Below, one piece after another: positions 8,617 through 50,721 of a stretch of 62,153 nt of DNA. The DNA is from an uncultured Candidatus Saccharibacteria bacterium (GTDB taxonomy: Bacteria > Patescibacteriota > Minisyncoccia > Phycocordibacterales > UBA12079), in NCBI GenBank assembly GCA_964486155.1, contig CAZAKQ010000002.1, positions 1-62,153 on the forward strand, in the 5' to 3' direction. The stretch's first letter is position 1. Each line of letters begins with the position of its first letter. Below the pieces are notes generated by a model, which was given only the letters and a program-made list of their open reading frames with translations, had not been told where the DNA came from and did not search any database. A program made the translations under genes and the position numbers.

Positions 8617-8647
8617 ATTTACATTTTAATTTAATGTTAACTTTCAA

Positions 8648-28163: not shown

Positions 28164-28189
28164 ATTTAGTCCAGTTAACTGGACTAAAT
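28164..28189. repeat. 26-bp perfect palindrome, core tagtCCAGTTAACTGGacta
   Basis: Symmetry checked base by base. Confidence 0.9.
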
Positions 28190-28321
28190 TTATAATTTAT
28201 ATTTCAAAAACATAATTTCTTATAATTTACTATAATTTATATATAATTTAAGACTTATTAATTTAAACGACCTAAATTGATTATATTGTAAATCTATTAT
28301 TAATAATAAAAACCTATTTTT

Positions 28322-28363
28322 TAAAACCCTACTAGTCCAGTTAACTGGACTAGTAGGGTTTTA
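28322..28363. repeat. 42-bp perfect palindrome, core tagtCCAGTTAACTGGacta
   Basis: Symmetry checked. Lies 26 nt 3' of the HTH gene stop, so it may double as a terminator. Confidence 0.9.
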
Positions 28364-28388
28364 TTTTTTAATTTTTGTTTATATTTAT

Positions 28389-28820
28389 TCAATTTCTTTT
28401 CTTGTATTTTTCATCTATTTGATTTAGAAAATCCCATCTACCTTTTCCTACAATCGGGGGCATTCCACATTTTAAAACAATCTCCATTCCATCCCAAAAA
28501 GTAACTCTGTTCTTTTTCTTTTCTACCATTTCTAAAATATTTTCATATTTGTCAAAATCAATATCATTAGCTACTTTAATTACTGTAGATTTACTTACAC
28601 TTAAAATTTTATGAATACGATACATAGATACTTTTTCGTATAACATAAAAATTATAGATAGTCGTTTAGCTAAAACTATTTTTTCAGATTCTGTTAATAA
28701 ATCATCTAAAAATCCTTTAGCTGAAGTATTAGTTTCCAAATCAGCAACAATATTAACTAAACGACTATTTATTTTGTTCGAAACATTTTTCTTTAATTTA
28801 TTTTTTGAAACATTAACCAT
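28389..28820 (-). CDS. TrpR/YerC-like helix-turn-helix protein (paralog 1)
   Basis: LLTESEKIVLAKRLSII..YRIHKILSVSKSTVIKV resembles the TrpR-family HTH. Paralog at 35706..36152. Confidence 0.6.
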   Translation of the reverse strand: MVNVSKNKLKKNVSNKINSRLVNIVADLETNTSAKGFLDDLLTESEKIVLAKRLSIIFMLYEKVSMYRIHKILSVSKSTVIKVANDIDFDKYENILEMVEKKKNRVTFWDGMEIVLKCGMPPIVGKGRWDFLNQIDEKYKKRN

Positions 28821-28846
28821 AATAATTTAATTAATTATAACATATT

Positions 28847-28868
28847 TTAGTCCAGTTAACTGGACTAA
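28847..28868. repeat. 22-bp perfect palindrome, core tagtCCAGTTAACTGGacta (candidate operator)
   Basis: The palindrome starts 27 nt upstream of the HTH gene start codon. Its centre is 63 bp from the centre of the next copy. Confidence 0.85.
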
Positions 28869-28907
28869 TTTATGGTAATTTGTTTTTTATAAATTTTAAT
28901 TTTACTT

Positions 28908-28933
28908 GATTAGTCCAGTTAACTGGACTAATC
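28908..28933. repeat. 26-bp perfect palindrome, core tagtCCAGTTAACTGGacta
   Basis: Symmetry checked. Confidence 0.9.
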
Positions 28934-31630: not shown

Positions 31631-31658
31631 ATTATACGATTATATATAATCGTATAAT
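31631..31658. repeat. 28-bp perfect palindrome (attatacgattata|tataatcgtataat)
   Basis: Symmetry checked. Confidence 0.85.
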
Positions 31659-31672
31659 TCTTATCTGCATAT

Positions 31673-31724
31673 AAATTAAAATCTTTATTACTCCAATCGA
31701 TTGGAGTAATAAAGATTTTAATTT
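31673..31724. repeat. 52-bp perfect palindrome, core tactCCAATCGATTGGagta
   Basis: Symmetry checked base by base across 26 pairs. Confidence 0.9.
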
Positions 31725-31733
31725 TGATTTCAC

Positions 31734-31767
31734 TGAACCACCTATGAGAATCAAACTAACGACCTAT
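31734..31767 (-). pseudogene. degenerate copy of the tRNA-Thr(CGU) T-arm/3' end
   Basis: ataggtcgttagtttgattctcataggtggttca compared with the tRNA's gtaggtcatgagttcaattctcatcttcggct. The T stem has a mismatch, and there is no 5' half. Confidence 0.4.
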
Positions 31768-31782
31768 AGTTTATCCCGTTAG

Positions 31783-31855
31783 AGCCGAAGATGAGAATTG
31801 AACTCATGACCTACGCGTTACGAGTGCGTTGCTCTACCAACTGAGCTACTTCGGC
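31783..31855 (-). tRNA. tRNA-Thr (anticodon CGU)
   Basis: Cloverleaf folded by hand: acceptor gccgaag/cttcggc, anticodon loop ctCGTaa, T arm atgag-ttcaatt-ctcat. Confidence 0.85.
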
Positions 31856-31861
31856 TAAATG

Positions 31862-31934
31862 AGCCCGAGGGCAGGATTGAACTGCCGACCTTTCGCTTAC
31901 CATGCGAATGCTCTACCAACTGAGCTACTCGGGC
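31862..31934 (-). tRNA. tRNA-Thr (anticodon GGU)
   Basis: Acceptor gcccgag/ctcgggc, anticodon loop atGGTaa, T arm ggcag-ttcaatc-ctgcc. Confidence 0.85.
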
Positions 31935-32014
31935 TGATTCTTATATCTTATTTTATTTTAGGTTTTTTTGCAAAATGAAAACCAAAGTATATAACTTTAG
32001 TTTTGTTTAAATTT

Positions 32015-32220
32015 GCGCGATCGAAGGGACTTGGTCACTCTCGTGGATATTTATTTCGTGCTTTGCACTCATAAATATCTCACTCCCTTGACCTCCACTC
32101 GGCGATACGACTCTTTCGCTTCGCTACAGAGTCGGCTTCGCATCGCCTCGGTTCAAGTCCATCATCGCGCTAAAACAAAAGTCACCCAACACTATCGTAT
32201 TGGGTTCCTTTGTTTTATGC
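32015..32220 (-). other. tRNA-3'-end-associated structured module A (candidate ncRNA or miniature integrative element)
   Basis: The 20-nt sequence at 32015-32034 is identical to 32219-32238 (tRNA-Asp T-loop to 3' end). An inverted copy lies at 32151-32172. Hairpins at 32047-32080 and 32110-32134. Confidence 0.65.
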
Positions 32221-32295
32221 GCGATCGAAGGGACTTGAACCCTCAACCTCTCGCGTGACAGGCGAGTGCTCTAACCAAATTGAGCTACGACCGCA
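32221..32295 (-). tRNA. tRNA-Asp (anticodon GUC)
   Basis: Acceptor gcggtcg/cgatcgc, anticodon loop ctGTCac, T arm gaggg-ttcaagt-ccctt. Confidence 0.9.
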
Positions 32296-32344
32296 AATTT
32301 ATACTGCAATACTTTAACAAATTTTTATATTTTTCTCAATACTG

Positions 32345-32418
32345 TGTCGACGAATGGATTCGAACCATTGATCTGGCGCGTATGAGACGCCCGCTTTAAC
32401 CAACTAAGCTACGCCGAC
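32345..32418 (-). tRNA. tRNA-Met (anticodon CAU), elongator type or Ile2-type
   Basis: Acceptor gtcggcg/cgtcgac with a paired 1-72, anticodon loop ctCATac. Confidence 0.8.
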
Positions 32419-32507
32419 AATTAACCAATAATATAGCATATTTAGTTAAATAATTAAACACTCCTCCAAACAAAAACAACCCAATTGGGTTGTTTTTGTT
32501 TTACTTG

Positions 32508-32578
32508 TTGCGGGAGCCTGACTTGAACAGACACCTGGAGGTTATGAGCCTCCCGTGCAACCTTTACACCATCCCGCG
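32508..32578 (-). tRNA. tRNA-fMet (anticodon CAU), initiator-like
   Basis: C1-A72 mismatch (cgcggga / tcccgca), anticodon stem ggagg/cctcc, loop ctCATaa, T loop ttcaagt. Confidence 0.7.
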
Positions 32579-32790
32579 ATATACTATTTAGTTTTAAAAC
32601 AAATTTATTCTTGTAACTCATAACCAAAGGTTATGAGTCTATGGATCCTATCGCGTGCAACCTTTACACCATCCCGCGATATACTATTTAGTTTTAAAAC
32701 AAATTTATTCTTGTAACTCATAACCAAAGGTTATGAGTCTATGGATCCTATCGCGTGCAACCTTTACACCATCCCGCGATATATTTAGTT
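32554..32790. repeat. 100-bp tandem repeat, about 2.3 copies, each containing the 5' 25 nt of tRNA-fMet
   Basis: 32554-32653 is identical to 32654-32753. A third partial copy starts at 32754 and has a 3-nt deletion. Confidence 0.9.
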
Positions 32791-33050
32791 AGTTAGATAT
32801 TAGGTAATTAGGGAAAAATTGCTTTGCAATTTTCATTACCTTCTTAAAAACTCTAAACTCTTTTTCAACGCTTAAAATATACAGTAAAAACACTCAAAAA
32901 GCAAGCAAAAACTGTCTTTAAATGAAAATTTCAACAACTCAAGTCGTTGAGCCGTTGAAACATTTAATGGCTTTAAATAAAGCTAGAATTCATTAATTTT
33001 TAATTTAGCATTTTTAATTTTTAATTTGAAATATTTTGTAAAAATATTTC

Positions 33051-33638
33051 TTAGATATATTGAAATTCTTCAAATACAGTTTTATATAAACCAACAGCTC
33101 TTTTTGCTGTTCTTTGTGTTAAAAGAGAATCAGAACCTTCATGAGCTACTTGATTTCTTATTTTATGAGCTTCCCAAGCATTATCAATTGTCGTAAAATC
33201 ACTTTTTTCAACTTGTTTCAATTTTTCTCCTATACCTTCGCCCACGTATCCCATTTTAGTAATCATTTCATCTAAAATTACATCAGCATCTAAAATAGCC
33301 ATTCTCCATTCTGCCTGAGAATCAGAATTAACATAGCGCACAATTTTTTCCCATCTTTCATTTTTAATTTCAACAAATTCAGAATCTCCAGCTGAAGAAA
33401 CAACCGTATCAAATATTTCTGAATCTTTTTGTGCCACAGGTTTCATTTTATACCGAACATATAAAATTCCAATCAACAAAACAACTGAAATTAAAAAAGA
33501 ATAAAACATAATAAAAGACCAATTATCATAATATATATTCCACAATCTAATAGGATTAAAATAATAAAATAAACCTTTTATTATAAGATAAATCCAATAA
33601 TATATTTGTTCAATATTTAAAAAATCAACATATTCCAT
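33051..33638 (-). CDS. membrane-anchored protein with a HEPN-like (DUF4145-like) C-terminal domain
   Basis: N-terminal TM segments. C-terminal AHKIRNQVAHEG contains an R-x4-H motif. Confidence 0.5.
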   Translation of the reverse strand: MEYVDFLNIEQIYYWIYLIIKGLFYYFNPIRLWNIYYDNWSFIMFYSFLISVVLLIGILYVRYKMKPVAQKDSEIFDTVVSSAGDSEFVEIKNERWEKIVRYVNSDSQAEWRMAILDADVILDEMITKMGYVGEGIGEKLKQVEKSDFTTIDNAWEAHKIRNQVAHEGSDSLLTQRTAKRAVGLYKTVFEEFQYI

Positions 33639-35649: not shown

Positions 35650-35677
35650 CAATTACCCCAGTTAACTGGGGTAATTG
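35650..35677. repeat. 28-bp perfect palindrome, core taccCCAGTTAACTGGggta
   Basis: Symmetry checked. Lies 29 nt 3' of the HTH paralog 2 stop. Confidence 0.9.
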
Positions 35678-35705
35678 AACGAATTTATAATATCTAAAAT
35701 TACAT

Positions 35706-36152
35706 CTATTTCTTATTCTTATATTTTTTAATATTATATTTTTCATAAATTTCATCTAAGATATTCCATTGCCCCGCTCCTACAATAGAAGGTATCCCCA
35801 TTTTTAAAACCAAATCCATTCCTTTCCAAAAAGTCATTCTATTTTTTCTCAGTCTAACTATTCTCAAAATATATTTATATTTATCTAAATTAATATCTTG
35901 AGAAACTTTTTTTACAGTAGTATCACTTACCTTTATCAATTCAGAAATTCTATACCAACTTAAATTTTCTTGAAGCATAAAAATGATAGCTAATCTCTTT
36001 GCTAAAGTTATTTTTTCTGACTCAGTTAACAATTCATTTAAAAAGTTCTTTGTAGAGGAATTGGTTTCTAAACTAGTAATTACATTAATCAAACGATTAT
36101 TAATATGCTCAGAAACACCTTTTTTTAATTTTTGTTTAGAAACATTAACCAT
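35706..36152 (-). CDS. TrpR/YerC-like helix-turn-helix protein (paralog 2)
   Basis: MVNVSKQKLKKGVS..LLTESEKITLAKRLAIIFML. About half the residues match paralog 1 by eye. Confidence 0.6.
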   Translation of the reverse strand: MVNVSKQKLKKGVSEHINNRLINVITSLETNSSTKNFLNELLTESEKITLAKRLAIIFMLQENLSWYRISELIKVSDTTVKKVSQDINLDKYKYILRIVRLRKNRMTFWKGMDLVLKMGIPSIVGAGQWNILDEIYEKYNIKKYKNKK

Positions 36153-36230
36153 AAAATTATTTAAATTAAAATTTAATAAATCCTATTTTTTTAATTTTTA
36201 ATATTTCAATCAACTTATTTAATATTCTAA

Positions 36231-36264
36231 CACAATACACCCCAGTTAACTGGGGTATATTGTG
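36231..36264. repeat. 34-bp palindrome (one mismatched pair), core caccCCAGTTAACTGGggta
   Basis: Upstream of HTH paralog 2. Confidence 0.85.
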
Positions 36265-36411
36265 GGTAATTATTTTCTAAATTTTATTTAAAATATGAAA
36301 ATAATTGTAAAAAGCAATGACTTAGCAAAACTTTTAGAAAACTAATTTAATTAAATTAAAATTAATCAGACTTAATATCAACATAAAACAGAAAATACAA
36401 AAATTTAACCC

Positions 36412-36445
36412 CTTATATTACCCCAGTTAACTGGGGTAATATAAG
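36412..36445. repeat. 34-bp perfect palindrome, core taccCCAGTTAACTGGggta
   Basis: Symmetry checked. Confidence 0.9.
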
Positions 36446-38575: not shown

Positions 38576-39118
38576 TTAATAAGACACTTTCCATGCTCTC
38601 TCTACTCTATCTTTTCTTAATGGATTACAAGTATTTTGTCCAAAAGATTTAATTATAGTTTCTTCTTCGGGTTCAGGATACTTAAAAAGTTCTACTTGAA
38701 CACAAGAATCATTTGAATAATTTAAATTAAAAGTATTGCGCCGACAATCTACTCCACAATCAGTATATGCAGTAACTATTGCTGTTTGTCCACTACAATC
38801 AATACTAACAGGAGAAGTACTAGTAGAAAAAACACCAGCCTTTATATCCCAATATAAAGCGCACTCCATTCCTCCATCAGCAGCGTAAAAGGCAAATATA
38901 GATTCTCTAGCACCTGATGACAAAATTACTTCTCTTAAAGCAATATTGAATATAGACATACCAATAACCAAAAATATATTTGCTAATAATAGAGCAATCA
39001 TTGATACAAAAGCTTTGTTGGAATGTTGGAAGTAAAAAAAAGAGGATGACTGAAAAAAACTTTGCTTCTTTTTTAAATTCAAATTATTTATTTTTTTAAT
39101 ATTTCTTATATTTGTCAT
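38576..39118 (-). CDS. pilus-associated membrane protein (PilX-like)
   Basis: Single N-terminal hydrophobic helix, Cys-rich C-terminal domain. Last gene of the minor-pilin block. Confidence 0.4.
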   Translation of the reverse strand: MTNIRNIKKINNLNLKKKQSFFQSSSFFYFQHSNKAFVSMIALLLANIFLVIGMSIFNIALREVILSSGARESIFAFYAADGGMECALYWDIKAGVFSTSTSPVSIDCSGQTAIVTAYTDCGVDCRRNTFNLNYSNDSCVQVELFKYPEPEEETIIKSFGQNTCNPLRKDRVERAWKVSY

Positions 39119-39197
39119 TTTAATTTAAAATTATTTTTAAATAAAATTTATGAAATAAATTTTTCCACTTTCTATCCTCTACATTTCATATTCTATA

Positions 39198-39776
39198 TTA
39201 CTGCCAATTAAATAATCTCTCTTTTATAGTAAATTGATGCTCATTTGGACCTCCAATCCAAAACATATTAACTACAATTTCAAGCTCTTTATTTGCTGTA
39301 ATTTCTGTAATTTGAACTTCTCTTCTAAAACGAGATTCATCTCCTGTTGAATAACCAAAAAGATAACTAGAAGAATTATATTTCAAATTTTCACAGTCAT
39401 TACTACAAGAATCGATACTTTCGTTTGGTGAATCTATTTTACATTTGCTTCCAATACAATCTGTTAGCCCATAAGTCCAGCTTCTTTCATTCAAAATATT
39501 ATTATCTCTAATATTTCTGATATACTCTATAGCTTCTTGCGCCAAATACATTGAAGTTATTTGACTTTTTGCTATTTTTGAAATAGATAAGCCTTTAGTT
39601 ACTAAAGTTAAAGGACCGGCCATAGCAATTATTAAAATAGTTATCGCTATGAAAGTTTCTATTAAAGTAAATCCAGCATTATTTCTTCTATTATGAAAAG
39701 TTATTTTAAATTTTAAATCTTCCTGTTGTTTAACAGTTTTAAAATAAGATTTAAAATTTAAGATTATTTTGTTCAT
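39198..39776 (-). CDS. prepilin-type minor pilin
   Basis: N-terminal methylation motif AGFTLIETFIAITIL. Confidence 0.7.
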   Translation of the reverse strand: MNKIILNFKSYFKTVKQQEDLKFKITFHNRRNNAGFTLIETFIAITILIIAMAGPLTLVTKGLSISKIAKSQITSMYLAQEAIEYIRNIRDNNILNERSWTYGLTDCIGSKCKIDSPNESIDSCSNDCENLKYNSSSYLFGYSTGDESRFRREVQITEITANKELEIVVNMFWIGGPNEHQFTIKERLFNWQ

Positions 39777-39809
39777 TATAATATTTTATTCTATTTTTCT
39801 ATTTCAAAA

Positions 39810-40412
39810 TTAATAATCAATTAATCTTTGAGTAACCGTTGTTTGTAAATTAAAATAAGTTTTTTCTTTTTCTTTTTCTCCTACATAACCCTTAGCTACA
39901 ATTAAAACTTTAGGTTGAATTAAATCATTAATATCCGATCCTGTTACTACAAAATATAAATCTTCTAAAATTAATTCTTCAGCTGTTAAAGAAAGAAAAT
40001 TGGCACCACTATCAACTGATTTATAGATTCCATTATTATCAAATCTAAAAACTACTTGATCATTAGGATTAAAAACATCTCCATCAAAAGGCTCAAAAGC
40101 AATTGAAGAATCACCAACCAAACAATCTCTAGTTAAAGTATAATCTCCTGAACCACAATGATAATAATAACCCGTTCTTATTTCACGAGACATCATTTCC
40201 ATAGCTAAATTTAAATTGTTTACAGCTGTTTGAATTGCTTGTGTTTGTTTATTTGCATGTAAGACATTTAATAATGCTCCCATACCTATTACCATAACTA
40301 AAGAAAAAATAGCAACAGCCGTTATCATTTCTACAAGAGTAAATCCTTTACTAGCTTTTAGGAAAAAATTAACTTGTAATTTTTCCTTATTTTTTTGTTT
40401 TAATGTTTTCAT
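39810..40412 (-). CDS. prepilin-type minor pilin
   Basis: KGFTLVEMITAVAIFSLV motif. Confidence 0.7.
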   Translation of the reverse strand: MKTLKQKNKEKLQVNFFLKASKGFTLVEMITAVAIFSLVMVIGMGALLNVLHANKQTQAIQTAVNNLNLAMEMMSREIRTGYYYHCGSGDYTLTRDCLVGDSSIAFEPFDGDVFNPNDQVVFRFDNNGIYKSVDSGANFLSLTAEELILEDLYFVVTGSDINDLIQPKVLIVAKGYVGEKEKEKTYFNLQTTVTQRLIDY

Positions 40413-40431
40413 ATTTTAATGTTTTAATGAT

Positions 40432-41016
40432 TTACTCTACTGAATTAACAGAAATTTGACCTATTCTATTTACAAAAATTCTTTTTTTGACTCCTTTAGG
40501 TGAAATAATATAAATATTAGCAGAATCATATATTTCTGTTCCTGAATCAGCTTTTATAACAGCGCTCGGATTAGGTCTCAAAAAAGCTATACTGATACTA
40601 CTTGGAGAACAATCACTTTCAACACATAAATCATCAACTTCATTTCCTCTAGACATTCTTAAAGTATCTACAACTTCATCTAAACCAGGATCATAAATGA
40701 AATTAGGAGTACTCACAGGATAAATATCTGCAAAAATAAAAAATTCATCTGAATTGATGTCAAAATAAACTCCATATCCTTCGTTAAAATCTCCAGCAGT
40801 TTGTTTAACTTGCACTCCATAAGATTGAGCTTGTCTGATAGCTAAAGAAATTTCATAAGCTAAATTTTCAACTATAACTTGACTATTAAATTGAGAATGA
40901 TTAAAAAAAACAAAACCTGATACTAGTGCTAAAATTGAAATTGTCACTAATAATTCAATTAATGAAAATCCAGCATTATCTCTTCTATTATAAAAATTTA
41001 AGATTATTTTGTTCAT
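40432..41016 (-). CDS. prepilin-type minor pilin
   Basis: AGFSLIELLVTISILAL motif. Start taken at MNKIILNF (TAATG overlap with the pilD stop). The first ~35 nt and upstream sequence duplicate those of the 39198 gene. Confidence 0.7.
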   Translation of the reverse strand: MNKIILNFYNRRDNAGFSLIELLVTISILALVSGFVFFNHSQFNSQVIVENLAYEISLAIRQAQSYGVQVKQTAGDFNEGYGVYFDINSDEFFIFADIYPVSTPNFIYDPGLDEVVDTLRMSRGNEVDDLCVESDCSPSSISIAFLRPNPSAVIKADSGTEIYDSANIYIISPKGVKKRIFVNRIGQISVNSVE

Positions 41017-41852
41017 TATAATATAAAATTCAAACTCCACACATTCCAATTAAAGAAAAAAACTAAAATCATTCCTATTATTAAGAAAGGCGCAAAAGGT
41101 AATTCACTTTTAATTGTAAAATCTTTAGATAAAAAAGACAATTGCTTACTGTGACTAATTTTTGATAATAATATTAAAAACAAACCGACTAAAGCTCCTA
41201 ACCAAACTCCTAAAATAATAGCTGACGAACCTTTAATTAATCCTAAAAACCAACCTATTCCCAAAGCTAATTTAGCATCTCCTAAACCTAACCATTTTCC
41301 TTTAGAAACAATCCACAAAAATATAAAAGGGAAAGCCAATATCGGTCCAGCCCAAAAAATAGACAAAAAACCAAAACCATCAAAACTTAAAATAAAAAAT
41401 CTAAACAAAGCTATCCCAGAAAATAAGAAAACCCAAAGATCAGGAATAATTTTATTATATAAATCATATACAAATATAATAATTAATAATGAAAAAATCA
41501 CCCATAACGACATTAAATCAAAAAATTGTAATATTGAAGATTGAGACATTGAGAATTGTTTGAAAGTTGTGAATTGTGAATTGAAAATTAGAAGAAATAG
41601 TGTCCCCGACACTATTTCGACCAAGGGGTATTGCCAAGAAATATTCTGTTTACATTTTTTACATTTGCCTTTTAAAAACAAAAAACTCAAAACAGGAATT
41701 AATTCATACCATGTTAGTTTTTTATGACAATTTGGGCATTCAGATCTTCCATTTAAAGATTTTTTCTCTTGTCGTAAAATAACCACATTCAAAAAACTAC
41801 CAATAATAGTTCCAAAAACAAACACGCTTATTCCCAAAAAATAATTTTCCAT
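41016..41852 (-). CDS. pilD: prepilin peptidase / N-methyltransferase (A24 family)
   Basis: CPNC..CKKC zinc-binding N-domain, YPLVEIVSG motif and multi-TM peptidase domain with GLGDAKL. Confidence 0.85.
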   Translation of the reverse strand: MENYFLGISVFVFGTIIGSFLNVVILRQEKKSLNGRSECPNCHKKLTWYELIPVLSFLFLKGKCKKCKQNISWQYPLVEIVSGTLFLLIFNSQFTTFKQFSMSQSSILQFFDLMSLWVIFSLLIIIFVYDLYNKIIPDLWVFLFSGIALFRFFILSFDGFGFLSIFWAGPILAFPFIFLWIVSKGKWLGLGDAKLALGIGWFLGLIKGSSAIILGVWLGALVGLFLILLSKISHSKQLSFLSKDFTIKSELPFAPFLIIGMILVFFFNWNVWSLNFIL

Positions 41853-41940
41853 TTATATAATTATATCATAATATGAAGTTTATTATATAAACAAAAAACC
41901 TACTGAGGAGTCCAACCCCTCAGTAGATTTTTTGTTTAGT

Positions 41941-42384
41941 TTAAGGCGCTACATTATACTCTCTTTCTGTATCACTTATATCTGTATCATTATCTTCTTT
42001 CAACAAAACATTATATTGTTGTAAAGTAGCACTCAAAGCATAATCTTGTCCACTACTTAATTGAGAATAAACATATTCCGAACCATTAGGATCATAAGAA
42101 ACATTTAAAAAACCATCTAATTGACCACTATATATACCGGACGGATAACTAGAATTAATATCATAATAAAGTTCCAAAGCTAATTGAATTTGTTTAATAT
42201 CAGATATTCTTCTTCCATCCTTAGCTCTTTCTCTTGTACCACTTAAAGACGTTAAAACTACTGAGGATAAAATACCTATAATAGCAACCACTACTAACAA
42301 TTCTGTTAAAGTAAAACCAAAATTAGTTTTCAAAAAAAGATTGTTTTGTAATTTTTTCTTATTTTTGTAGTCTAATATTGTCAT
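41941..42384 (-). CDS. type IV pilin (major-pilin-like)
   Basis: FGFTLTELLVVVAIIGILSSVVL prepilin N terminus. Confidence 0.8.
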   Translation of the reverse strand: MTILDYKNKKKLQNNLFLKTNFGFTLTELLVVVAIIGILSSVVLTSLSGTRERAKDGRRISDIKQIQLALELYYDINSSYPSGIYSGQLDGFLNVSYDPNGSEYVYSQLSSGQDYALSATLQQYNVLLKEDNDTDISDTEREYNVAP

Positions 42385-42404
42385 ATCTTAAAAACTTACA
42401 AATC

Positions 42405-42806
42405 TTACGAAGAAGTTATACAACCGGTTTCTGTACAAGTAATAGTCCAAGCATCTCCCTCTGAAGTAGAAGCTGAATAAGCCTCTGAACCGGAAGTAGT
42501 TACAGTAGCTCCATAACTCCAATTACTAGGCAATTCAGGATAAATTACTGAATCGGGACATAATACAGTTGTTCCACCAGTAGGAGTTCCACTAGTCAAA
42601 GTCTTTTCTTCGTTAATACAAATAATCAAATGAGAATGCAAAGATGACATTTGAGTTTGAGCTCTACCTAATCTTCCTCTTGCTCTAGCATCTCCCAAAG
42701 AAACTAAAACTATAGAAGACAAAATTCCTATAATAGCTACTACAACTAAAAGTTCTACTAAAGAAAAACCTTTTGATATTTTTTTATTTACTGGTTTATT
42801 TAACAT
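42405..42806 (-). CDS. type IV pilin (major-pilin-like)
   Basis: KGFSLVELLVVVAIIGILSSIVL. Confidence 0.8.
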   Translation of the reverse strand: MLNKPVNKKISKGFSLVELLVVVAIIGILSSIVLVSLGDARARGRLGRAQTQMSSLHSHLIICINEEKTLTSGTPTGGTTVLCPDSVIYPELPSNWSYGATVTTSGSEAYSASTSEGDAWTITCTETGCITSS

Positions 42807-42824
42807 AAATAATTTTAATTATTT

Positions 42825-43298
42825 TTAGTTACAACCGCTATCAAACCTTCCAATAGGACCTACAGCTGAATTAAGTCCAGCATTTAATTCTCCTGAACCA
42901 TACTCTAGATAAAAACAAATCTGAAAATCTTCAGTTCCTGCTCCAGCTGAACCGTCAGCAGCACTCAATGAATAACCACAAGCTCCGGTTGACGCACTAG
43001 AACAAGGAGTAGTACTTAAAGAAGGATCATTATAATCTGAGAAAAATGAAATATCTCCCGGACCTGTACAAGCACTGAACAAAGAATCTGCTGCTGTACA
43101 ACCAGTTAAAGCTACATTTCCAGTATCTGATTCAATTACTAATAACTTAACCATATCCTTTACATCTTCTAAACGACGAGCATCTCTCGCTTTTTCACGA
43201 GCTGTACCTAAAGAACTTAATACGACAGCTGCTAAAATTCCCATAATAGCCACCACAATCAATAATTCTATAAGAGAAAAACCTTTTTGTTTTTTCAT
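42825..43298 (-). CDS. type IV pilin (major-pilin-like, Cys/Gly/Ser-rich globular domain)
   Basis: KGFSLIELLIVVAIMGILAAVVL. First pilin gene after pilC. Confidence 0.8.
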   Translation of the reverse strand: MKKQKGFSLIELLIVVAIMGILAAVVLSSLGTAREKARDARRLEDVKDMVKLLVIESDTGNVALTGCTAADSLFSACTGPGDISFFSDYNDPSLSTTPCSSASTGACGYSLSAADGSAGAGTEDFQICFYLEYGSGELNAGLNSAVGPIGRFDSGCN

Positions 43299-43539
43299 AA
43301 ATATATTAGTTAAAAATTTTTAAAATCTAAGTTTACTTAAAAATTTATTTTAACTTACAAAATAAATATAACTTTTGATTCTATCAATTTTAACTCTACT
43401 TAATTAATAATTAATAATAAAATTATAAGACGATATAATTTATTTAATATATTATAACTCTAAGTTCTTTTAAAAAGGAAGTAAAGGTGGGGATAAAACA
43501 AATTCTTCAAATGATTTTTTATTCTTGGAATCTATTTTT

Positions 43540-44745
43540 TTAAATTGCTGAAGAAATATTGTAAATTGGCATTAAAACAGCTGCCATTAAACCACCAACT
43601 CCTAAACCTAGAAAAACAATCATTGCTGGCTCTATCATTCCTACCAACATATCAACCAAACCATTAACTTCTCTTTCGTAAAATCGTGAAAGAGTATCTA
43701 AAATTCCACTTAATTCTCCTGTTTCTTCTCCGATTCTTATCATCTGAACCATAATATTAGGAATTTCTTCATAGCCAGTCAAAGAATCCGATACCGAAAC
43801 ACCCGCTTTAATTTGTTTTACAGATTTATTTAAAATATCTTGATAAACGACACTATCTACTACAGTAGAAGTAGTTTCCATAGTCTTAACCATCGATACT
43901 CCACTAGCCAACATAGTTTGCATATTACCCAAAATTCTTGATAAATACATTTTTTTGTACAAATCTCCTATATACGGAGTTTTTAATTTAAATTTATCTA
44001 CAGATAATTTACCTACCGGAGTTTTAGCAAATCTAAAAAACATAAAAATACCAATAACTAAAAATACTAGTAAAAATAGTCCGTAATTTAACAAAAAATC
44101 ACTTATAGCAATCACAGCTCTTGTAAGAATAGGTAATTCTTGTCCAGCATCAATCAAAATAGAACTAATTTTAGGAATAACCATTGTAAACATTAAAACC
44201 ATAACTACAACAAAGACAATGATTACAAAAAGAGGATAAACCAAGGCATTTTTTACCTTAGATAATAATTCATAACCTCTATCTAAATGTTTAGCTAAAA
44301 AAGAAAAAGTTTCATTTAATTTTCCTGATTCCTCTCCAGATTTTATCATATTGATATAAAAACTAGAAAATACCTTAGGGTGTTTAGATAACGCTAAAGA
44401 TATCTGTGCTCCTCCTTGTATATCATCAGCTACCTTAGACAAGACTCTCCTTAAAGCAGGGTTTTCTGATTCATTTCCTAATAGACGAAAAACTCTTAAA
44501 GCTGACACATGCGAACCAAATAAAGTAGAAAGTTGTTTAGATAAAATAACCACATCCTTATGAGAAACTTTTTGCAAAAAAGTAAATTCTATATCCAGAA
44601 GTCCTTTTTTATTTACTTCACCTATATAAGTGATTACATAACCTCTATCTTGCAACGAAGAAATAGCTACTTCTTCATTAATAGCTTCTATTCTTCCCTC
44701 TTTCTCTATTCCTTTTTGATTTACTATTTTATATTTAAATAACAT
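43540..44745 (-). CDS. pilC: type IV pilus platform protein (GspF family)
   Basis: Two GspF repeats, 3-TM topology, 401 aa. Confidence 0.9.
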   Translation of the reverse strand: MLFKYKIVNQKGIEKEGRIEAINEEVAISSLQDRGYVITYIGEVNKKGLLDIEFTFLQKVSHKDVVILSKQLSTLFGSHVSALRVFRLLGNESENPALRRVLSKVADDIQGGAQISLALSKHPKVFSSFYINMIKSGEESGKLNETFSFLAKHLDRGYELLSKVKNALVYPLFVIIVFVVVMVLMFTMVIPKISSILIDAGQELPILTRAVIAISDFLLNYGLFLLVFLVIGIFMFFRFAKTPVGKLSVDKFKLKTPYIGDLYKKMYLSRILGNMQTMLASGVSMVKTMETTSTVVDSVVYQDILNKSVKQIKAGVSVSDSLTGYEEIPNIMVQMIRIGEETGELSGILDTLSRFYEREVNGLVDMLVGMIEPAMIVFLGLGVGGLMAAVLMPIYNISSAI

Positions 44746-44775
44746 AATAATTTGTTAAAAACCTAAAGAATATTT

Positions 44776-45837
44776 TTAATTTAAATTTCTACTTAATTCT
44801 TTTGATCTATAAGAATATTTTTTAGCATTTTCTAAAGTAATTTCTCCCATTCGGACTAATTCTTCTAAAGATTTATTCAAACTAATCATTCCTTCTTTAG
44901 AAGAAGTTTCAATTACATTATTAATCTCAAAAGTTCTCCCTTCTCTAATCAAATTTGCCGTAGCATTATTATTTATCATTAATTCATAAGCAGGAATCAT
45001 TCCTCCTGAAATTCTAGGGATTAGTCTCTGAGAAAAAATACCCAACAAAGAAGCAGCTAATTGGATTTTTATTTGGCCTTGCTGTTCAGGAGGGAACACA
45101 TCAATTATTCTATCTATAGTTTGCGCAGCATTATTTGTGTGTAAGGTAGAAAAAACTAAGTGTCCTGTTTCAGCTGCAGTAACGGAAGTAGATATAGTTT
45201 CTAAGCCTCTCATTTCTCCAATCATTAACACATCAACATCTTGTCGAAACATTGATTTTAAAGCAGTTGGAAAATCTTTTGTATCTATTTTAATTTCTCG
45301 CTGATCTATCATAGACTTTCCTTTTTGAAAAATATATTCAACAGGATCTTCTATTGTCATTATATGTTCAGCCCTAGATTGATTAATCATCTCTATCATA
45401 GAAGATAATGTCGTTGATTTTCCATGCCCCATAGGTCCTACTACTAAAAAAAATCCCTGTTGTTTTTGAATAAAATTCTCTAAAATAGAAGGTAAATTAA
45501 GCTCATTTAAAGTTTTTACTTTCTTAGGAATCAACCTTAAACTTATTCCTATTGATTTTTGAGCAAAAAAACAACTTCCTCTAAAACGAGACTTTGAAGT
45601 TTCATAAGAAAAATCTATCTCTTTATTCTTTAAAAATTCTTCTACTTGCTTAGGGCTAAGAAGAATATTTAATATTTCTTTCATATCTTCAGAACTAAGA
45701 ACAGACATAGACTCTAAATAATGCAATAGCCCATGTACTCTAATTACAGGATGTTCTCCTTCAGCCAAATGAATATCAGATCCATTTTCTTTAATAACAG
45801 CCTCTATTAAACTTTCTACTAATTGTTTATAATCCAT
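44776..45837 (-). CDS. pilT: twitching-motility retraction ATPase
   Basis: Walker A GPMGHGKSTT, Asp box and His box (GHLVFSTLHTNNA), 353 aa. Confidence 0.9.
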   Translation of the reverse strand: MDYKQLVESLIEAVIKENGSDIHLAEGEHPVIRVHGLLHYLESMSVLSSEDMKEILNILLSPKQVEEFLKNKEIDFSYETSKSRFRGSCFFAQKSIGISLRLIPKKVKTLNELNLPSILENFIQKQQGFFLVVGPMGHGKSTTLSSMIEMINQSRAEHIMTIEDPVEYIFQKGKSMIDQREIKIDTKDFPTALKSMFRQDVDVLMIGEMRGLETISTSVTAAETGHLVFSTLHTNNAAQTIDRIIDVFPPEQQGQIKIQLAASLLGIFSQRLIPRISGGMIPAYELMINNNATANLIREGRTFEINNVIETSSKEGMISLNKSLEELVRMGEITLENAKKYSYRSKELSRNLN

Positions 45838-45982
45838 GATTGTTTAAATTAATTATATTATATTTTTTAAAATTCGTCACATAAGTTTGTGTATAGTAAA
45901 TTATATTCACAATTTAATTTTCAATTCACAATTCTCAATCCGCCAGCTGGCGAATCAATCAATGAATTAATTATCAATTTTC

Positions 45983-46080
45983 AAACACGAATTTTGGCTC
46001 CGCCAAAATTCGTCAACATTGGAAATTTAAACATTGAAAATTCCTTGAAAATTATGAATTATGAATTGAAAATTTTTTTA
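45983..46080. repeat. intergenic repeat in the pilB-pilT spacer (58-nt core identical to 49442-49499)
   Basis: attttggctccgccaaaattcgtcaacattggaaatttaaacattgaaaattccttga at 45991-46048. Confidence 0.9.
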
Positions 46081-47805
46081 AAGTTTATTTGCTTCTTCAA
46101 ACGGAATAATCTTTTTAAAAGCTTTAATTAGAGCATCTTGTTTCATAGTAACCATTCCTTTTCCCATTACAACTTTTTCAATAGAAACTGAATCAGGACT
46201 CTTTAAAATAATTTCTTCTATATCTGAATCCATTTCAATAACTTCGTAAACTCCTGTTCTTCCTTTCATTCCTTGAGGGTTTCCTTCTATAGGAGTAGCT
46301 TCATAAACACTATCTGGAACTTCTATATCCTTTCTATATTCTTCAGGCAGACTTTCAAAAGCTTTATCTATCATCATTTTAATACTTCCTTCTATAGGAA
46401 TAGCCTTACCAGATCCTTCTGCTAATTTTCTAGTCAATCTTTGAGCAATAGCTACTATTAAAGTAGGAGCAATTAAATAAGGATCTACTCCCATTTCAAT
46501 CAATCTAGGAATAACTCCAACCGCATTATTAGTATGGATAGTAGACAAAACTAAATGACCTGTTAAAGCTGCCTGAATAGCCAAACCAGCAGTTTCTTTA
46601 TCTCTAATCTCACCTACCATAATTACATCTGGATCTTGTCTTAAAGTTGTTCTCAGTCCACTAGCAAAAGTATATCCTATTTCTGGACGAACTTGAGATT
46701 GACTTACTCCTTCTACGTTTTTTTCTACAGGGTCTTCTAAACTCAATACATTTTTACTTAATCGATCCACTTCATTTAGAATTGAATATAAAGTCGTGGT
46801 TTTTCCTGAACCAGTCGGACCTGAAATCAAAACTAATCCATGAGATTTCCTTATCCCTTTTTTAATAATAGATGAATTCTTTTCGCTCAAACCTAATTGT
46901 TCAAGCTTAGGTACTCCTTCATTAGATTCTAAAAGACGCATTACAACCTTTTCTCCATAATAAGTGGGAAAAGTAGAGACTCTAAAGTCAACTTTTGCTT
47001 CGTCAATCATCGCTGAAAAACGACCATCTTGAGGTTTTCTTTTTTCATCTAATCTCATTTGAGCTAGAATTTTAATTCTAGCTACAACAGCCCCATGGAC
47101 TTTAATCGGTAAAACTAAATGAGTTGATAAAACTCCATCTATTCTAAAACGAACACGAACCTTTTCTCCTACATGCTCAATATGAACATCAGAAGCACTT
47201 CCTTCATGAGCAAATCTTAAAATAGTAGCTACTATTTTAGTTACGGGAGCATCTTCTGTAATAGTTGCTTCTAATTTTTTCTTATCTTTATTTACTTTAT
47301 TTACAGCACTGCTGATCTTAGCTTCTTCTTCTGTTAACTCTAACTCTAATTCAGTCAAAGCTTGGGAAACCTCCCCTCTTAAACCACGGTATCCATCAAT
47401 AATCAATTCAAAATCACTAAAAGAAATTACAAAAAGTTTAAAAGGTAACCCTATCTTAGAAGAAATAAACTGAATAGCATCTCGAGCTTCAATATTAGAA
47501 GGATCCATTATTCCTATCTCCAAAAAATTATCTACAACTCCCAAAGGAACAAATTTATAATGCAAAGCTGATTTCTCAGGAACATATTTAAGAGCTTTAT
47601 TTGAAAAATTATCTATACTTAAATCTTTAGAAGGTAAATTAAAAAACTCCTCTTTAGCTTTAAGGATTTCTTGTTTAGCTATACCGTTTTTAATAAGAAT
47701 TAAATCTAAGTTAGCATCTTCATCTGTAGCTAAACTTTTTTTTACTATAGCTAGCAATTCAGGCGTAACTATATTCTTTTTAGATAAAATATCTAAATAA
47801 CTCAT
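46078..47805 (-). CDS. pilB: type IV pilus assembly ATPase (GspE family)
   Basis: N-terminal GspII-like domain, Walker A GPTGSGKTTT, GHLVLSTIHTNNA. Confidence 0.9.
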   Translation of the reverse strand: MSYLDILSKKNIVTPELLAIVKKSLATDEDANLDLILIKNGIAKQEILKAKEEFFNLPSKDLSIDNFSNKALKYVPEKSALHYKFVPLGVVDNFLEIGIMDPSNIEARDAIQFISSKIGLPFKLFVISFSDFELIIDGYRGLRGEVSQALTELELELTEEEAKISSAVNKVNKDKKKLEATITEDAPVTKIVATILRFAHEGSASDVHIEHVGEKVRVRFRIDGVLSTHLVLPIKVHGAVVARIKILAQMRLDEKRKPQDGRFSAMIDEAKVDFRVSTFPTYYGEKVVMRLLESNEGVPKLEQLGLSEKNSSIIKKGIRKSHGLVLISGPTGSGKTTTLYSILNEVDRLSKNVLSLEDPVEKNVEGVSQSQVRPEIGYTFASGLRTTLRQDPDVIMVGEIRDKETAGLAIQAALTGHLVLSTIHTNNAVGVIPRLIEMGVDPYLIAPTLIVAIAQRLTRKLAEGSGKAIPIEGSIKMMIDKAFESLPEEYRKDIEVPDSVYEATPIEGNPQGMKGRTGVYEVIEMDSDIEEIILKSPDSVSIEKVVMGKGMVTMKQDALIKAFKKIIPFEEANKL

Positions 47806-47874
47806 ATAATTTCAAACAAAGTTTTATAAAAAATTTATTTTCAATATAATTTTTTATAAAACCTAACTCTTAAA

Positions 47875-48189
47875 TTATTCTTCAATTTCAATATCTAACA
47901 TGAAATCTTCAAAAGGGTTATTTCTTCCTAATTCTTTTTCATCCAACTCAATACTGAAATCTATCAATTCTTTAAAAGCAATATCTTCAAAAATACTGTT
48001 GTCTAATTTTAAAGATTTCAAAGCTAATAGTATCTCTAAAGTTTCTTTACTTACTTCATTTATATTTCCTTTTATAGAAGTTAATTGTGAACTAGCTGAA
48101 ACATTAGATCTTCCTAAAATCAGAAACAAAGCTATTAATACAATTACTAATATTAAGATATTTCGTTTTTTTAAAATTATATTAAACAT
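47875..48189 (-). CDS. small membrane-anchored protein of the pilus operon
   Basis: 104 aa with an N-terminal TM. Position between pilO and pilB. Confidence 0.4.
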   Translation of the reverse strand: MFNIILKKRNILILVIVLIALFLILGRSNVSASSQLTSIKGNINEVSKETLEILLALKSLKLDNSIFEDIAFKELIDFSIELDEKELGRNNPFEDFMLDIEIEE

Positions 48190-48193
48190 TATT

Positions 48194-48733: not shown

Positions 48734-48743
48734 AATGTTATTT

Positions 48744-49334: not shown

Positions 49335-49433
49335 TAAAAAATAATCTGTATCTTAAAAAGTGTGGATAGAAACGAATACGAATTTTCAATTTCTAATTTT
49401 CAATTTTCAATCAATAAAAAATGTTCAATTCTC

Positions 49434-50703: not shown

Positions 50704-50721
50704 TATTATATCATATACTTA

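Follow-up and report, generated by a model that had tools for sequence, protein, structure and literature searches.

The tRNA-Asp gene of this Candidatus Saccharibacteria genome is followed by a gene-less insert, Module A, which we interpret as one copy of a family of mobile, non-autonomous, structured and probably transcribed elements that sit behind tRNA and tmRNA genes of CPR bacteria. We hold this interpretation with about even confidence. Two relatives, Modules B and C, lie in the same analysed stretch of 62,153 nucleotides (the window), and about 35 further copies were found in CPR/Patescibacteria assemblies. The literature yielded no description of such an element, and the family is apparently undescribed; so far, it is known only from CPR bacteria.

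The host gene of Module A, tRNA-Asp (GTC), occupies 32219-32294 of the minus strand (ARAGORN; 69.5 bits against the Rfam tRNA model), and all parts of the module lie on that strand. A first copy of the repeat, corresponding to tRNA positions 56-75 (C56 to G73 plus CA), is inside the functional gene at 32218-32237. Abutting the tRNA is T1 (32171-32217), a long, terminator-like hairpin of A-tract, stem and U-tract (terminator scan, 32205->32184), and after it comes an antisense copy of tRNA positions 52-73 (32150-32170), which terminates in GAACC and, aligned to the tRNA 3' end, is complementary save for a 2-nt deletion and one mismatch. Then follow the side arm P2 (32101-32147; GGCGAT/ATCGCC around GACTC/GAGTC, with GCGAAGC mini-hairpin motifs in the MFE fold), the stretch GAGGTCAAG (32087-32095), which is part of the invariant block GAGTGGAGGTCAAGGGAG, the arm P3 (32046-32079; a 9-bp AT stem, tandem G.A and a GUGC/GCAC apical stem), the 3' junction CCACGAGAGUGAC (32034-32045) and a sense copy of tRNA positions 56-75 (32014-32033), which is the second copy of the repeat. 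Another hairpin lies beyond it, at about 31976-32008. The exact 20-mer, TGCGCGATCGAAGGGACTTG on the plus strand, occurs twice in the window at a spacing of 204 nt, with both flanks differing; by our estimate, chance alone would give about 0.002 repeats of this kind in 62 kb. The insert measures 184 nt and holds no ORF, and its core measures 116 nt. The parts listed for this module in the earlier note all exist, but its coordinates, including those of the repeat, were off by one. A unit-length circle of the element, which is hypothetical, would show the junction ...GAGAGTGAC|CAAGTCC....

On the tRNA-sense strand, the element folds as a three-way junction. P1 has the antisense copy as its 5' strand and the sense copy as its 3' strand, and it stacks on P4, in which GGUCA of the invariant block pairs with UGAC of the 3' junction plus C56 of the sense copy. 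P2 forms the side arm, a purine-rich internal loop connects P4 to the long arm P3, and CAC of the 3' junction pairs with GUG. The 165-nt element of Module A folds at -67.9 kcal/mol (z = -7.2 vs shuffles), and type 3 copies as well as single-sequence folds of Modules A, B and C show the same architecture. Paired cells amount to 94.3%, whereas shuffles reach 78.5% and slid controls about 40%, and compensatory changes occur in 20 of 33 pairs, so that the covariation first noticed between Modules A and B generalises across the family. On each of five measures, none of 500 shuffles matched the observed value. All six base pairs at the base of P2 covary among 19 copies, and helix 5 (the GUG/CAC stem plus P3) carries compensatory changes in 8 of 11 pairs; for example, GUG/CAC becomes GCG/CGC in L043 and L086 and GUA/UAC in L022. 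Compensatory substitutions beyond controls, the generic mark of a structured non-coding RNA, are thus present. G.U outnumbers A.C by 36 to 6 in type 1 and by 16 to 2 in type 3, and some G.U pairs are invariant. It follows from this excess that the tRNA-sense strand is the one that folds.

The closing helix keeps only the T-arm part, about 8-12 bp, and only eight pairs of P1 are conserved. Of 17 aligned copies, at least 8 show visible degradation in the acceptor half of the antisense arm, while the T-arm part stays perfectly complementary, and the sense copy of Module B has no acceptor half. A tRNA-like minihelix, with a 12-bp stack of acceptor and T-stem running to the discriminator, is therefore not what these pairs form, and the idea that the closing helix mimics an acceptor/T minihelix is weakly supported.

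Several other identities were considered for Module A and rejected. A known RNA family is one: searched against Rfam 15, the 1.45 kb around the module (31650-33100) gave no match even at E <= 10, and in the whole window tRNA and tmRNA alone exceed the gathering score. Another is a small ORF, an ATG-started frame of 21 codons across P3; in other copies this frame has no ATG or is shifted, and substitutions there are pair-compensatory rather than codon-like. A tRNA-like gene on the opposite strand would have a T-stem of only two pairs, and the G.U/A.C asymmetry favours the tRNA-sense strand. Finally, the tandem G.A and junction motifs recall hammerhead, K-turn and T-box elements; inspected by eye, they do not fit the consensus nucleotides of these elements, none of which Rfam places over Module A.

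Module B (type 2; 57453-57640, minus strand; fold z = -4.6) lies behind tRNA-Ile (TAT; 57641-57714, minus strand; ARAGORN and Rfam) and has its parts in the order of Module A, as had been proposed: T1 at about 57594-57640, the antisense copy at about 57575-57593, the core at 57462-57574 and a sense copy of 9 nt at 57453-57461. A second copy of its terminator hairpin, 88% identical to 57598-57640 and belonging to repeat family D19, is found on the same strand at 57406-57448. Module C (type-3-like; 61755-61945, plus strand) follows the tmRNA gene (61339-61754, with the gene call at 61339-61753, plus strand) and consists of T1 (61755-61795), a degenerate antisense copy (about 61796-61824), a core (61825-61925) and a sense copy (61926-61945). 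The 20-nt repeat rule suggested for the three sites holds perfectly for A and for C (61735-61754 / 61926-61945), but the direct repeat of B is just 9 nt (57453-57461 / 57651-57659), with the acceptor part deleted.

Kinship of the three modules was assessed with two covariance models. R1, made from type-1 copies with Module A among them, scores Module A at 151 bits, Module B at 48.9 bits (E 7e-14) and Module C at just 6.6 bits. R2, made from six foreign type-3 copies and holding no window sequence, detects all three modules (C at 30.2 bits and E 1e-6, B at 28.9 bits, A at 20.7 bits) and nothing else in the window below E = 0.2. The claim that A, B and C are homologous at three different target genes is thereby borne out: they form one superfamily, and the homology is statistical, beyond visual resemblance. 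Three of the eight tRNA/tmRNA genes in the window are occupied.

The covariance-model search that the earlier note had proposed also turned up copies in many CPR genomes. R1 gave 32 matches on 27 CPR loci and a single weak match, containing the seeded 18-mer, in a 609-kb set of other loci, which is mostly non-CPR and also holds nine tRNA-Asp loci; R2 added copies behind tRNA-Thr, tRNA-Leu and two tRNA-Pro genes, which start 31-69 nt past the tRNA. By exact-motif scan, true copies occur only on contigs that are labelled as CPR MAGs or, for two odd bins, are identical to CPR MAGs, and the carriers belong to Saccharibacteria, Paceibacterota/Parcubacteria, Vogel-, Nomura- and Shapirobacteria. One metagenome scan with a loose pattern returned about 120 matching stretches, mostly due to chance; 10 of these stretches were true copies, several of them identical to known loci. 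Three scans of viral contigs produced no true copy, just two chance matches within coding sequence, and BLAST against phages and plasmids returned nothing; a phage or plasmid origin was rejected, since none of the collections searched holds a true copy.

Throughout the family the unit is gene-less and about 185-205 bp long, and consists of T1, an antisense copy of positions ~54-73, a core (93-131 nt in type 1) and a sense copy of positions 56-75. Its host genes span 13 amino-acid tRNA families and tmRNA. In 14 of the 18 tabulated copies, a co-oriented tRNA ends 41-45 nt before the R1 match begins; one other has a gap of 55 nt, and three are at 187-254 nt or unplaced. Orientation is that of the tRNA or tmRNA gene wherever a gene could be called, and at several loci the element is inside a tRNA operon. 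Nearly all copies with a callable tRNA thus lie where they were predicted to, a few tens of nucleotides 3' of a co-oriented tRNA/tmRNA gene, and end with the sequence of that gene from C56 onward. The inverted segments differ between copies, each equalling the local tRNA. The left edge of the repeat is always T55|C56, where the tRNA reads GGTT|C and the element GTGAC|C. Exact repeats are 20 nt long at Modules A and C and in L086, L144 and L163, and 21 nt long in L075; the sense copy is frequently decayed. The two nucleotides past the discriminator do not make a separate rule, since every tRNA gene of this genome has C (mostly CA) there, with or without an element.

The distribution of copies points to mobility. 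Identical tRNA-Asp 3' ends have no element in five loci (L218, L219, L221, L222, L223), carry other subtypes in three (L047, L224, L226) and a remnant in one (L220); behind the same tRNA in related genomes, the window has type 1 and L047 type 2. Units are arrayed as identical tandems in L096 and as mixed arrays in L074, L075 and L173, and in L072 three of four tRNA genes within 1.8 kb are occupied. Core similarity tracks neither tRNA identity nor taxon: within one MAG, the Leu copy shares 90% identity with the Asp copy, and the nearest relative of the window Asp copy (85%) is a Saccharibacteria copy whose arms match tRNA-Ala. L022 and L173 have near-identical flanks (partial repeat, T1 and antisense copy) before cores of different type, which requires that either the flanks were homogenised or the cores exchanged. 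In L061, the native tRNA-Ser trailer sits after the second repeat, and T1 is therefore element-borne at that locus. The order of terminators failed as a general guide to the native hairpin, as the window and L047 have the two hairpins swapped; this swap is explicable only by assuming arrays and deletions.

Genes that could move the element were sought nearby. No integrase, reverse transcriptase or transposase was found among the 40 window ORFs (Pfam) or the further annotated ORFs, and no gene for Cas12k, Tns, TnpB, IscB, IS110 or reverse transcriptase is in the window or adjoins any copy. All-against-all BLAST of flanking ORFs recovered only housekeeping families as recurrent neighbours, and a conserved neighbouring protein partner was rejected on these grounds. 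By eye, translations of neighbours include ABC-type ATPases, an FtsX-like membrane protein, and CTP-synthase-like and release-factor-like proteins. The earlier note had offered a miniature, non-autonomous integrative family as one hypothesis, and it fits the presence/absence pattern, the arrays, the variety of targets and the fact that no recombinase gene was found.

Misassembly, raised earlier as a possible refutation, does not account for the three sites, where contigs of other samples agree with the window. All contigs from other samples that reach the Module A region are 98.4-99.8% identical to it, with no indel in the element; the spacing of the genes flanking Module B is the same in five contigs from other samples; and contigs of three other samples are identical to the window at Module C over their extent, two of them spanning the whole module. 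A fourth sample's contig diverges within the tmRNA gene at 61723, and the contigs of several samples break shortly past Module C, at position 62217 in window numbering. Among assemblies of the source population, all that cover A and B have both unchanged, and those reaching C have C; they revealed no excised form, no circular junction and no site left empty at the population level.

How would such a unit propagate? We propose that a folded transcript is what selection preserves, and that it may arise by read-through of T1 in tRNA operons, with such read-through assumed. The fold would be required for propagation by a factor encoded elsewhere, presumably an enzyme acting in trans. The unit would insert in the T-loop, at T55|C56, and would supply a replacement tRNA 3' end together with a terminator, so that the native 3' end would be displaced, become the second repeat and decay. 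Recombination between repeats could then generate tandem and mixed arrays, and spread between genomes could use the conserved tRNA gene as a homology arm. The arms would have to be re-made for each new tRNA.

In part, the element resembles tyrosine-integrase islands and prophages (Islander database, PMC4383910), which also target tRNA and tmRNA genes, restore the 3' end of the gene with the insert, leave the displaced native 3' fragment as a direct repeat from the T-loop, and accrete in tandem at one gene. A flanking direct repeat of the tRNA 3' part, with the gene restored, is found at A, L075, L086, L144 and L163. However, islands measure kilobases and the element about 200 bp; the 184-nt insert of Module A has no integrase next to an att site, nor any gene. 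The element also differs in its folded, covarying core, in its extra antisense copy of the target, and in having homologues at 13 or more tRNA families, each with matching arms. A plain tyrosine-integrase or other simple integration scheme does not explain how sense and antisense arms both match each target. MITEs and CIMEs are likewise short, gene-less, multi-copy, repeat-flanked and presumably mobilised in trans. Fixed terminal inverted repeats with a short target-site duplication are not seen here, where the repeat is at least 20 nt and gene-derived. In contrast to the fixed transposase-binding ends of MITEs and CIMEs, the inverted segments are copied from the target; the interior is conserved as structure, and the site is strictly behind tRNA genes.

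The same data could instead describe a host non-coding RNA family that serves tRNA biology (3' maturation, termination or quality control) and is not selfish, a reading that we consider unlikely. Here the antisense arm would pair with the T-arm/acceptor 3' strand of the cognate tRNA, the sense arm would act as an internal decoy, and selection together with gene conversion would keep copies matched to their tRNA. Across phylum-level CPR lineages the core sequence is under strong purifying selection and shows covariation, which is consistent with this, as are the constant co-orientation with the tRNA, the location within tRNA operons at several loci, the fixation in the sampled population, and the perfect complementarity of the antisense T-arm part while the acceptor part drifts. 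The high occupancy (three of eight in the window, three of four in L072) could equally reflect host function. Set against this are the patchy occurrence behind identical tRNA-Asp genes, tandem duplicates and mixed arrays, different subtypes at one tRNA in related genomes (window type 1, L047 type 2), the frequent decay of the sense copy, core relationships that cross tRNA identity, and a terminator between tRNA and element.

A DNA element that recombines as folded single-stranded DNA, in the manner of integron attC sites or CTX-phage attP, seems to us distinctly unlikely. The stem made by the tRNA 3' end, T1 and the antisense copy would mimic a duplex T-arm, the core hairpins would be DNA structures, and a host Xer- or IntI-like tyrosine recombinase would join the stem with the tRNA gene. 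In attC sites, paired boxes are accompanied by an unpaired spacer and a variable loop, and the element likewise has a continuous imperfect palindrome from the tRNA end through T1 to the antisense copy, paired in its T-arm part and bulged or mismatched in its acceptor part. Like attC and the attP of CTX phage and IMEX, the palindrome combines paired boxes with a mismatched middle and a loop that varies, compensatory changes preserve the structure, and one strand matters; P2 and P3 conserve structure over sequence. The crossover-like boundary falls within the T-loop, a known sublocation for tyrosine integrases. The GCGAAGC, ACGAAGT and GACGAAGTC loops match classic hyperstable DNA mini-hairpins, and the folded molecule could therefore be single-stranded DNA. 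Competence and type IV pilus genes are present in the window and suggest uptake of single-stranded DNA. Unlike attC sites, which keep little sequence, the element has long invariant blocks (18 nt for GAGTGGAGGTCAAGGGAG), and it adds a three-way junction past the palindrome and a stem whose sequence is that of the target gene; no recombinase was identified among the window ORFs, and invariant G.U pairs are more typical of RNA. The T-loop reads GTTCRAN, where the core site of attC reads GTTRRRY, and the window yielded no intI. Since the arms of each copy match one tRNA only, the problem of retargeting remains in this scheme as well.

A self-retargeting mobile RNA, whose transcript holds both strands of the target (antisense for positions 54-73, sense for positions 56-75 from directly past the universal GGTT of the T-loop), inserts behind any tRNA or tmRNA and recopies its arms each time, is in our view a long shot. 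By analogy with the logic of bridge RNA and pegRNA, insertion would use a reverse transcriptase or recombinase acting in trans, or the RNA's own catalysis. Class C (IIC) group II introns are structured RNAs whose insertion sites lie just past intrinsic terminator hairpins; they are oriented with transcription and leave genes undisrupted. The element likewise is structured and lies past a terminator hairpin in the direction of transcription, but its core is 93-131 nt (type 1) rather than more than 600 nt, and it has no domain V/VI, no GUGYG...AY ends and no reverse-transcriptase ORF. The 116-nt core and its surroundings in the Module A region match no group I or II intron model, and the boundaries U55|C and C|C56 have neither a terminal G nor GUGYG/AY. 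A closing helix of the kind seen in retron msr-msd is present, with no reverse-transcriptase gene in the window or by foreign copies.

A guide-bearing RNA that directs its own insertion through an RNA-guided transposase, recombinase or reverse transcriptase acting in trans is very unlikely in our judgement. The universal GGTT of the T-loop would be PAM-like and the 20-nt sense copy protospacer-like, with the antisense copy addressing the other strand, so that a single RNA would represent both target strands. The constant left edge at T55|C56, the guide-like length of intact copies (20-21 nt) and the layout of scaffold followed by 20 nt agree with this. The antisense arm of Module A starts 67 nt past T55, near the 60-66 bp at which type V-K CRISPR transposons insert. 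CRISPR-associated transposons with delocalised crRNAs home beside tRNA genes (PMC11656645), and their homing crRNAs share with the element a copy of about 20 nt of tRNA-gene sequence and insertion just downstream; the element, by contrast, lacks a CRISPR repeat as well as cas and tns genes, makes up the inserted DNA itself, and adds an antisense copy. It is far too small for Tn7-like ends, and neither in the window nor by any copy is there an effector gene of the kind that serves a crRNA, omega RNA or bridge RNA (Cas12k, Tns, TnpB, IscB, IS110 or reverse transcriptase). The two putative guides are sequestered because they pair together in P1, and the 20 nt have a trivial origin in the 18 nt from C56 to the discriminator found in every tRNA plus the genome-wide CA.

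Independent decay of integrase-encoding islands or prophages in tRNA/tmRNA genes is largely refuted and barely credible: a direct repeat of the tRNA 3' end from the T-loop is the normal scar of such islands (PMC4383910), tmRNA is a classical target, and the contig breaks downstream of Module C would suit it, but some 35 copies in distant lineages share size, part order and a conserved, covarying core, none adjoins an integrase, searches of viral contigs, phage genomes and plasmids gave no true match, and decay makes neither an antisense copy nor compensatory changes.

The family matters first for the biology of CPR bacteria, which make up a large share of bacterial diversity with tiny genomes and have very few described mobile elements or regulatory RNAs. 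In many of their lineages we find a compact, RNA-like fold backed by covariation, and a sizeable fraction of tRNA genes can be occupied, as here in three of eight. The covariance model is ready for annotation of CPR genomes and accounts for partial tRNA-gene fragments that annotators would flag. The family also poses a mechanistic question, namely how a gene-less element of 200 bp gains sense and antisense copies of each new target. If the arms direct insertion, this would be a natural case of target-templated, RNA-specified integration at a safe genomic harbour, and if the element retargets itself, it would represent a new class of CPR-specific, RNA-directed mobile element.

In the window, which has a GC content of 27% and contains eight tRNA/tmRNA genes, Module A lies on the minus strand behind the tRNA-Asp gene (32219-32294). 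In gene orientation, tRNA-Asp is followed by T1, a terminator-like 47-nt A-tract/stem/U-tract hairpin (32171-32217), an imperfect antisense copy of the tRNA-Asp 3' end (32150-32170), a 116-nt core (32034-32149), and a perfect 20-nt sense copy of tRNA positions 56-75 (32014-32033, identical to 32218-32237). This 20-mer occurs at only these two sites in the window, and the bases neighbouring the two copies are unlike. The earlier note had placed these parts one base too high, but every sub-feature it listed was found in the sequence or fold, including the nested helices of P2, GAGGTCAAG (32087-32095), and the AT-stem hairpin. Modules B and C, which follow tRNA-Ile and the tmRNA gene respectively, are built from the same parts in the same order, as the earlier note had stated for Module B. 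The 20-nt repeat rule fails in Module B, where the tRNA end is repeated over 9 nt only and the terminator hairpin is duplicated instead.

The Module A locus is not an assembly artefact. Each contig from another sample that extends into the region aligns there at 98.4-99.8% identity, with zero indels in the element itself; the only length differences nearby are a 100-nt repeat on the tRNA-Met side that is one unit shorter and a 79-nt fusion in L230, a contig from the same population. In L230, the adjacent tRNA-Thr genes (CGT and GGT; window 31782-31934) are merged by a 79-nt deletion, reflecting either paralogue recombination or assembly collapse. Module C matches exactly in the contigs reaching it, and gene spacing around Module B is constant across the contigs compared. 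A short contig, L237, departs from the window at 61723, inside the tmRNA gene and just before its T-arm, and contigs from two other samples (L234 and L236) both end 64 nt past the window end (62153), ~270 nt after the second repeat of Module C; the tmRNA locus may be followed by sequence that is variable or repeated. The 100-nt repeat is a tandem array (32551-32783, minus strand) directly upstream (5') of the intact tRNA-Met (32507-32578). Its unit combines the first ~30 nt of tRNA-Met (acceptor 5' strand and D arm) with a hairpin resembling a degenerate anticodon arm and a spacer of ~40 nt, and one unit fewer is present in five other same-population assemblies that span it.

Across the loci examined, the sense copy always starts at C56, which is preceded by GGTT in the tRNA and by GTGAC in the element. 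The exact repeat is 20 nt in Modules A and C and in loci L086, L144, and L163. In L075 it measures 21 nt, in L093 and the tandem units of L096 it reaches through the terminator, and the sense copy has decayed in L061, L072, L073, and L083. The inclusion of two nucleotides past the discriminator, previously taken as part of the repeat, needs no separate rule: the base after the discriminator is C in all eight window genes, and CA follows in six of them. None of the eight encodes CCA, and CA also follows the discriminator in many CPR tRNA genes of the fetched loci. The antisense copy is complementary to the tRNA from position ~73 back to 54 (types 2 and 3) or 52 (type 1). It is near-perfect in Module B, L173, L073, and L093; in other copies the T-arm part (11-15 nt) alone is perfect and the acceptor part is degraded. 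The closing helix is a T-arm duplex and not the conserved acceptor/T minihelix that had been proposed.

RNAalifold applied to 19 type-1 copies predicts a three-way junction. Its closing helix, P1, pairs the antisense and sense copies through 8 conserved pairs. A side arm begins with CCG/UGG, including an invariant G.U, and continues through a 6-pair P2 base into P2. P4 (GGUCA/UGACC) has C56 of the sense copy as its last C and is therefore predicted to stack directly on P1; beyond P4 lie a purine-rich 5x5 internal loop, GUG/CAC, and P3, with tandem G.A beneath a variable apical stem. Cells are paired in 94.3% of cases, versus 78.5% when columns are shuffled and 33-42% when partners are slid, and compensatory changes occur in 20 of 33 pairs, with covariation at 6/6 pairs of the P2 base and 8/11 of the GUG/CAC-P3 helix. 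Type 3 shares this architecture and has two G.U pairs in P4 that are invariant, and single-sequence folds of Modules A, B, and C also recover it (z = -7.2, -4.6, and -2.5, respectively). Among non-Watson-Crick cells, G.U outnumbers A.C by 36 to 6 in type 1 and 16 to 2 in type 3, so the folding strand is the one that runs with the tRNA. Readings of the element as an ORF or as a tRNA-like structure on the opposite strand were considered and rejected.

Homologues were recovered from genome and metagenome collections with a degenerate motif from Modules A and B and then with the invariant 18-mer GAGTGGAGGTCAAGGGAG. All true homologues lie on contigs labelled as CPR/Patescibacteria MAGs, or identical to such contigs, from lineages including Saccharibacteria, Paceibacterota/Parcubacteria, and Vogel-, Nomura- and Shapirobacteria; L047, from a Paceibacterota MAG, has tRNA-Met/Met/Asp synteny in common with the window, which assigns the window to Paceibacterota, and the two hairpins are in swapped order between L047 and the window. 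R1, a covariance model of the 19 type-1 copies (Module A among them), scores Module A at 151 bits and Module B at 48.9 bits, and does not detect Module C. R2, built from six type-3 copies and free of window sequence, matches exactly three sites in the window: Module C (30.2 bits, E ~1e-6), Module B (28.9 bits), and Module A (20.7 bits). Because R2 detects exactly these three, they belong to one superfamily with at least three subtypes. With further copies in CPR contigs, the covariance-model check suggested earlier bears out the observation at Module A and extends it to a family. R1 gave one weak match, which contains the seeded 18-mer, when run on 609 kb of other DNA made up mainly of non-CPR loci together with nine tRNA-Asp loci. 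Rfam gave zero matches at E <= 10 in the 1.45 kb surrounding Module A, and only tRNA/tmRNA exceeded the gathering score across the window; viral contigs gave chance coding matches only, phage and plasmid collections gave none, and we found no description in the literature. Judged by Rfam 15, three sequence collections, and the literature that could be searched, this family has not been described before.

The R1 match begins 41-45 nt 3' of a co-oriented tRNA, directly after a hairpin, in 14 of 18 tabulated copies. The gap is 55 nt in one more. It widens to 187 nt in L187 and to 254 nt in L143, whose tmRNA was probably truncated by ARAGORN, and the L173 copy is unplaced within an array. Additional R2 matches begin 31-69 nt behind a tRNA; two copies (L001 and L022) lack a called upstream tRNA, and in L093 it is uncertain. 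Hosts include Asp, Ile, Ser, Leu, Gly, Arg, Lys, Gln, Tyr, Ala, Thr, and Pro tRNA genes and tmRNA. Local density is very high in L072 (1-1010), where three of four tRNA genes within 1.8 kb bear a superfamily element (Pro-CGG, Arg-CCG on the opposite strand, and Pro-GGG).

Occupancy is variable. Among tRNA-Asp genes with an identical 3' 24 nt, the element is absent in five genomes, type 2 or type 3 units are present in three, and a core-less remnant is present in one. L096 has two identical units in tandem, and L074, L075, and L173 carry mixed-subtype arrays behind a single tRNA. Core similarity follows neither tRNA identity nor taxonomy: Leu and Asp copies in MAG DAOQRR01 are 90% identical, the copy most similar to the window Asp copy (85%) comes from Saccharibacteria and has tRNA-Ala-derived arms, and two Ser copies from different organisms group together and share a homologous T1. 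In L061, the sequence past the second repeat matches the native tRNA-Ser trailer found in the window. At this locus the entering unit comprised the 3' end copy, T1, antisense copy, and core, and the native end, once displaced, forms the second repeat. L022 has two loci 1.8 kb apart with nearly identical flanks on both sides and type-1 versus type-3 cores, and L173 has cores of two types, each preceded by the same 79-nt block of partial repeat, T1, and antisense arm; either local homogenisation of flanks or exchange of cores between arms could account for this pattern. No mobility gene was found among recurrent neighbours, which look housekeeping by eye from their translations (ABC-type ATPases, an FtsX-like protein, CTP synthase, and a release factor), and no integrase, transposase, or reverse transcriptase was found among 40 window ORFs scanned with Pfam or other annotated ORFs.

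The window has several other features. The 10-mer CTAACGGGAT (inside ATCTCTAACGGGATGAA) occurs at 8 sites versus 0.06 expected (17342, 18708, 18797, 31773, 50726, 50797, 54131, and 54223). Six of them are arranged as three inverted pairs, with members 70-90 nt apart; the plus-strand member ends in an ORF ATG in two pairs, as do two minus-strand sites, and one site directly follows tRNA-Thr. The 10-mer resembles a shared leader or translation-start motif, or a regulatory one. The palindrome CCAGTTAACTGG has 7 copies versus 0.01 expected (28171-28926 and 35658-36434), clustered around two paralogous genes of the Trp_repressor family (28389-28820 and 35706-36152) and resembling operator sites. 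A zeta-toxin gene with a small upstream ORF lies at 7882-9076. A large type IV pilus/competence-like cluster (38576-51479) encodes PilM, PilO, two secretion ATPases, PilC, prepilin peptidase, a ComF-like phosphoribosyltransferase, four ORFs with the prepilin N-methylation motif, and one PilX-like ORF; further ORFs at 42405-43298 are pilin-like in size.

The best-supported reading, with roughly even chances of being correct, is a mobile, non-autonomous, structured element. Each of the two earlier hypotheses was half right: the miniature integrative-type element and the structured RNA-like fold both stand, and the minihelix closure does not. A host tRNA-linked regulatory RNA is an unlikely alternative. 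We consider it rather more doubtful that the element is a recombination site that acts as folded single-stranded DNA, like those of attC/CTX. GCGAAGC-type mini-hairpins and a bulged palindrome would suggest such a site, and the long blocks of invariant sequence and the invariant G.U pairs argue against it. A guide-like RNA that directs its own insertion could be imagined from the 20 nt that come directly after the universal GGTT and from an element start 67 nt from it, but no effector gene was found and the sense and antisense arms pair with each other, making this improbable. Decay of integrase islands is a very unlikely origin, the least probable of these readings. As a mobile element, it would enter at the T-loop and supply a replacement 3' end and terminator, displacing the native end. 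Recombination between repeats could then expand it into arrays, and the conserved tRNA gene may provide a homology arm for movement between genomes, a route that would give a sharp 20-nt repeat with unlike hairpins on each side. Propagation would depend on the conserved fold, most likely that of a read-through transcript.
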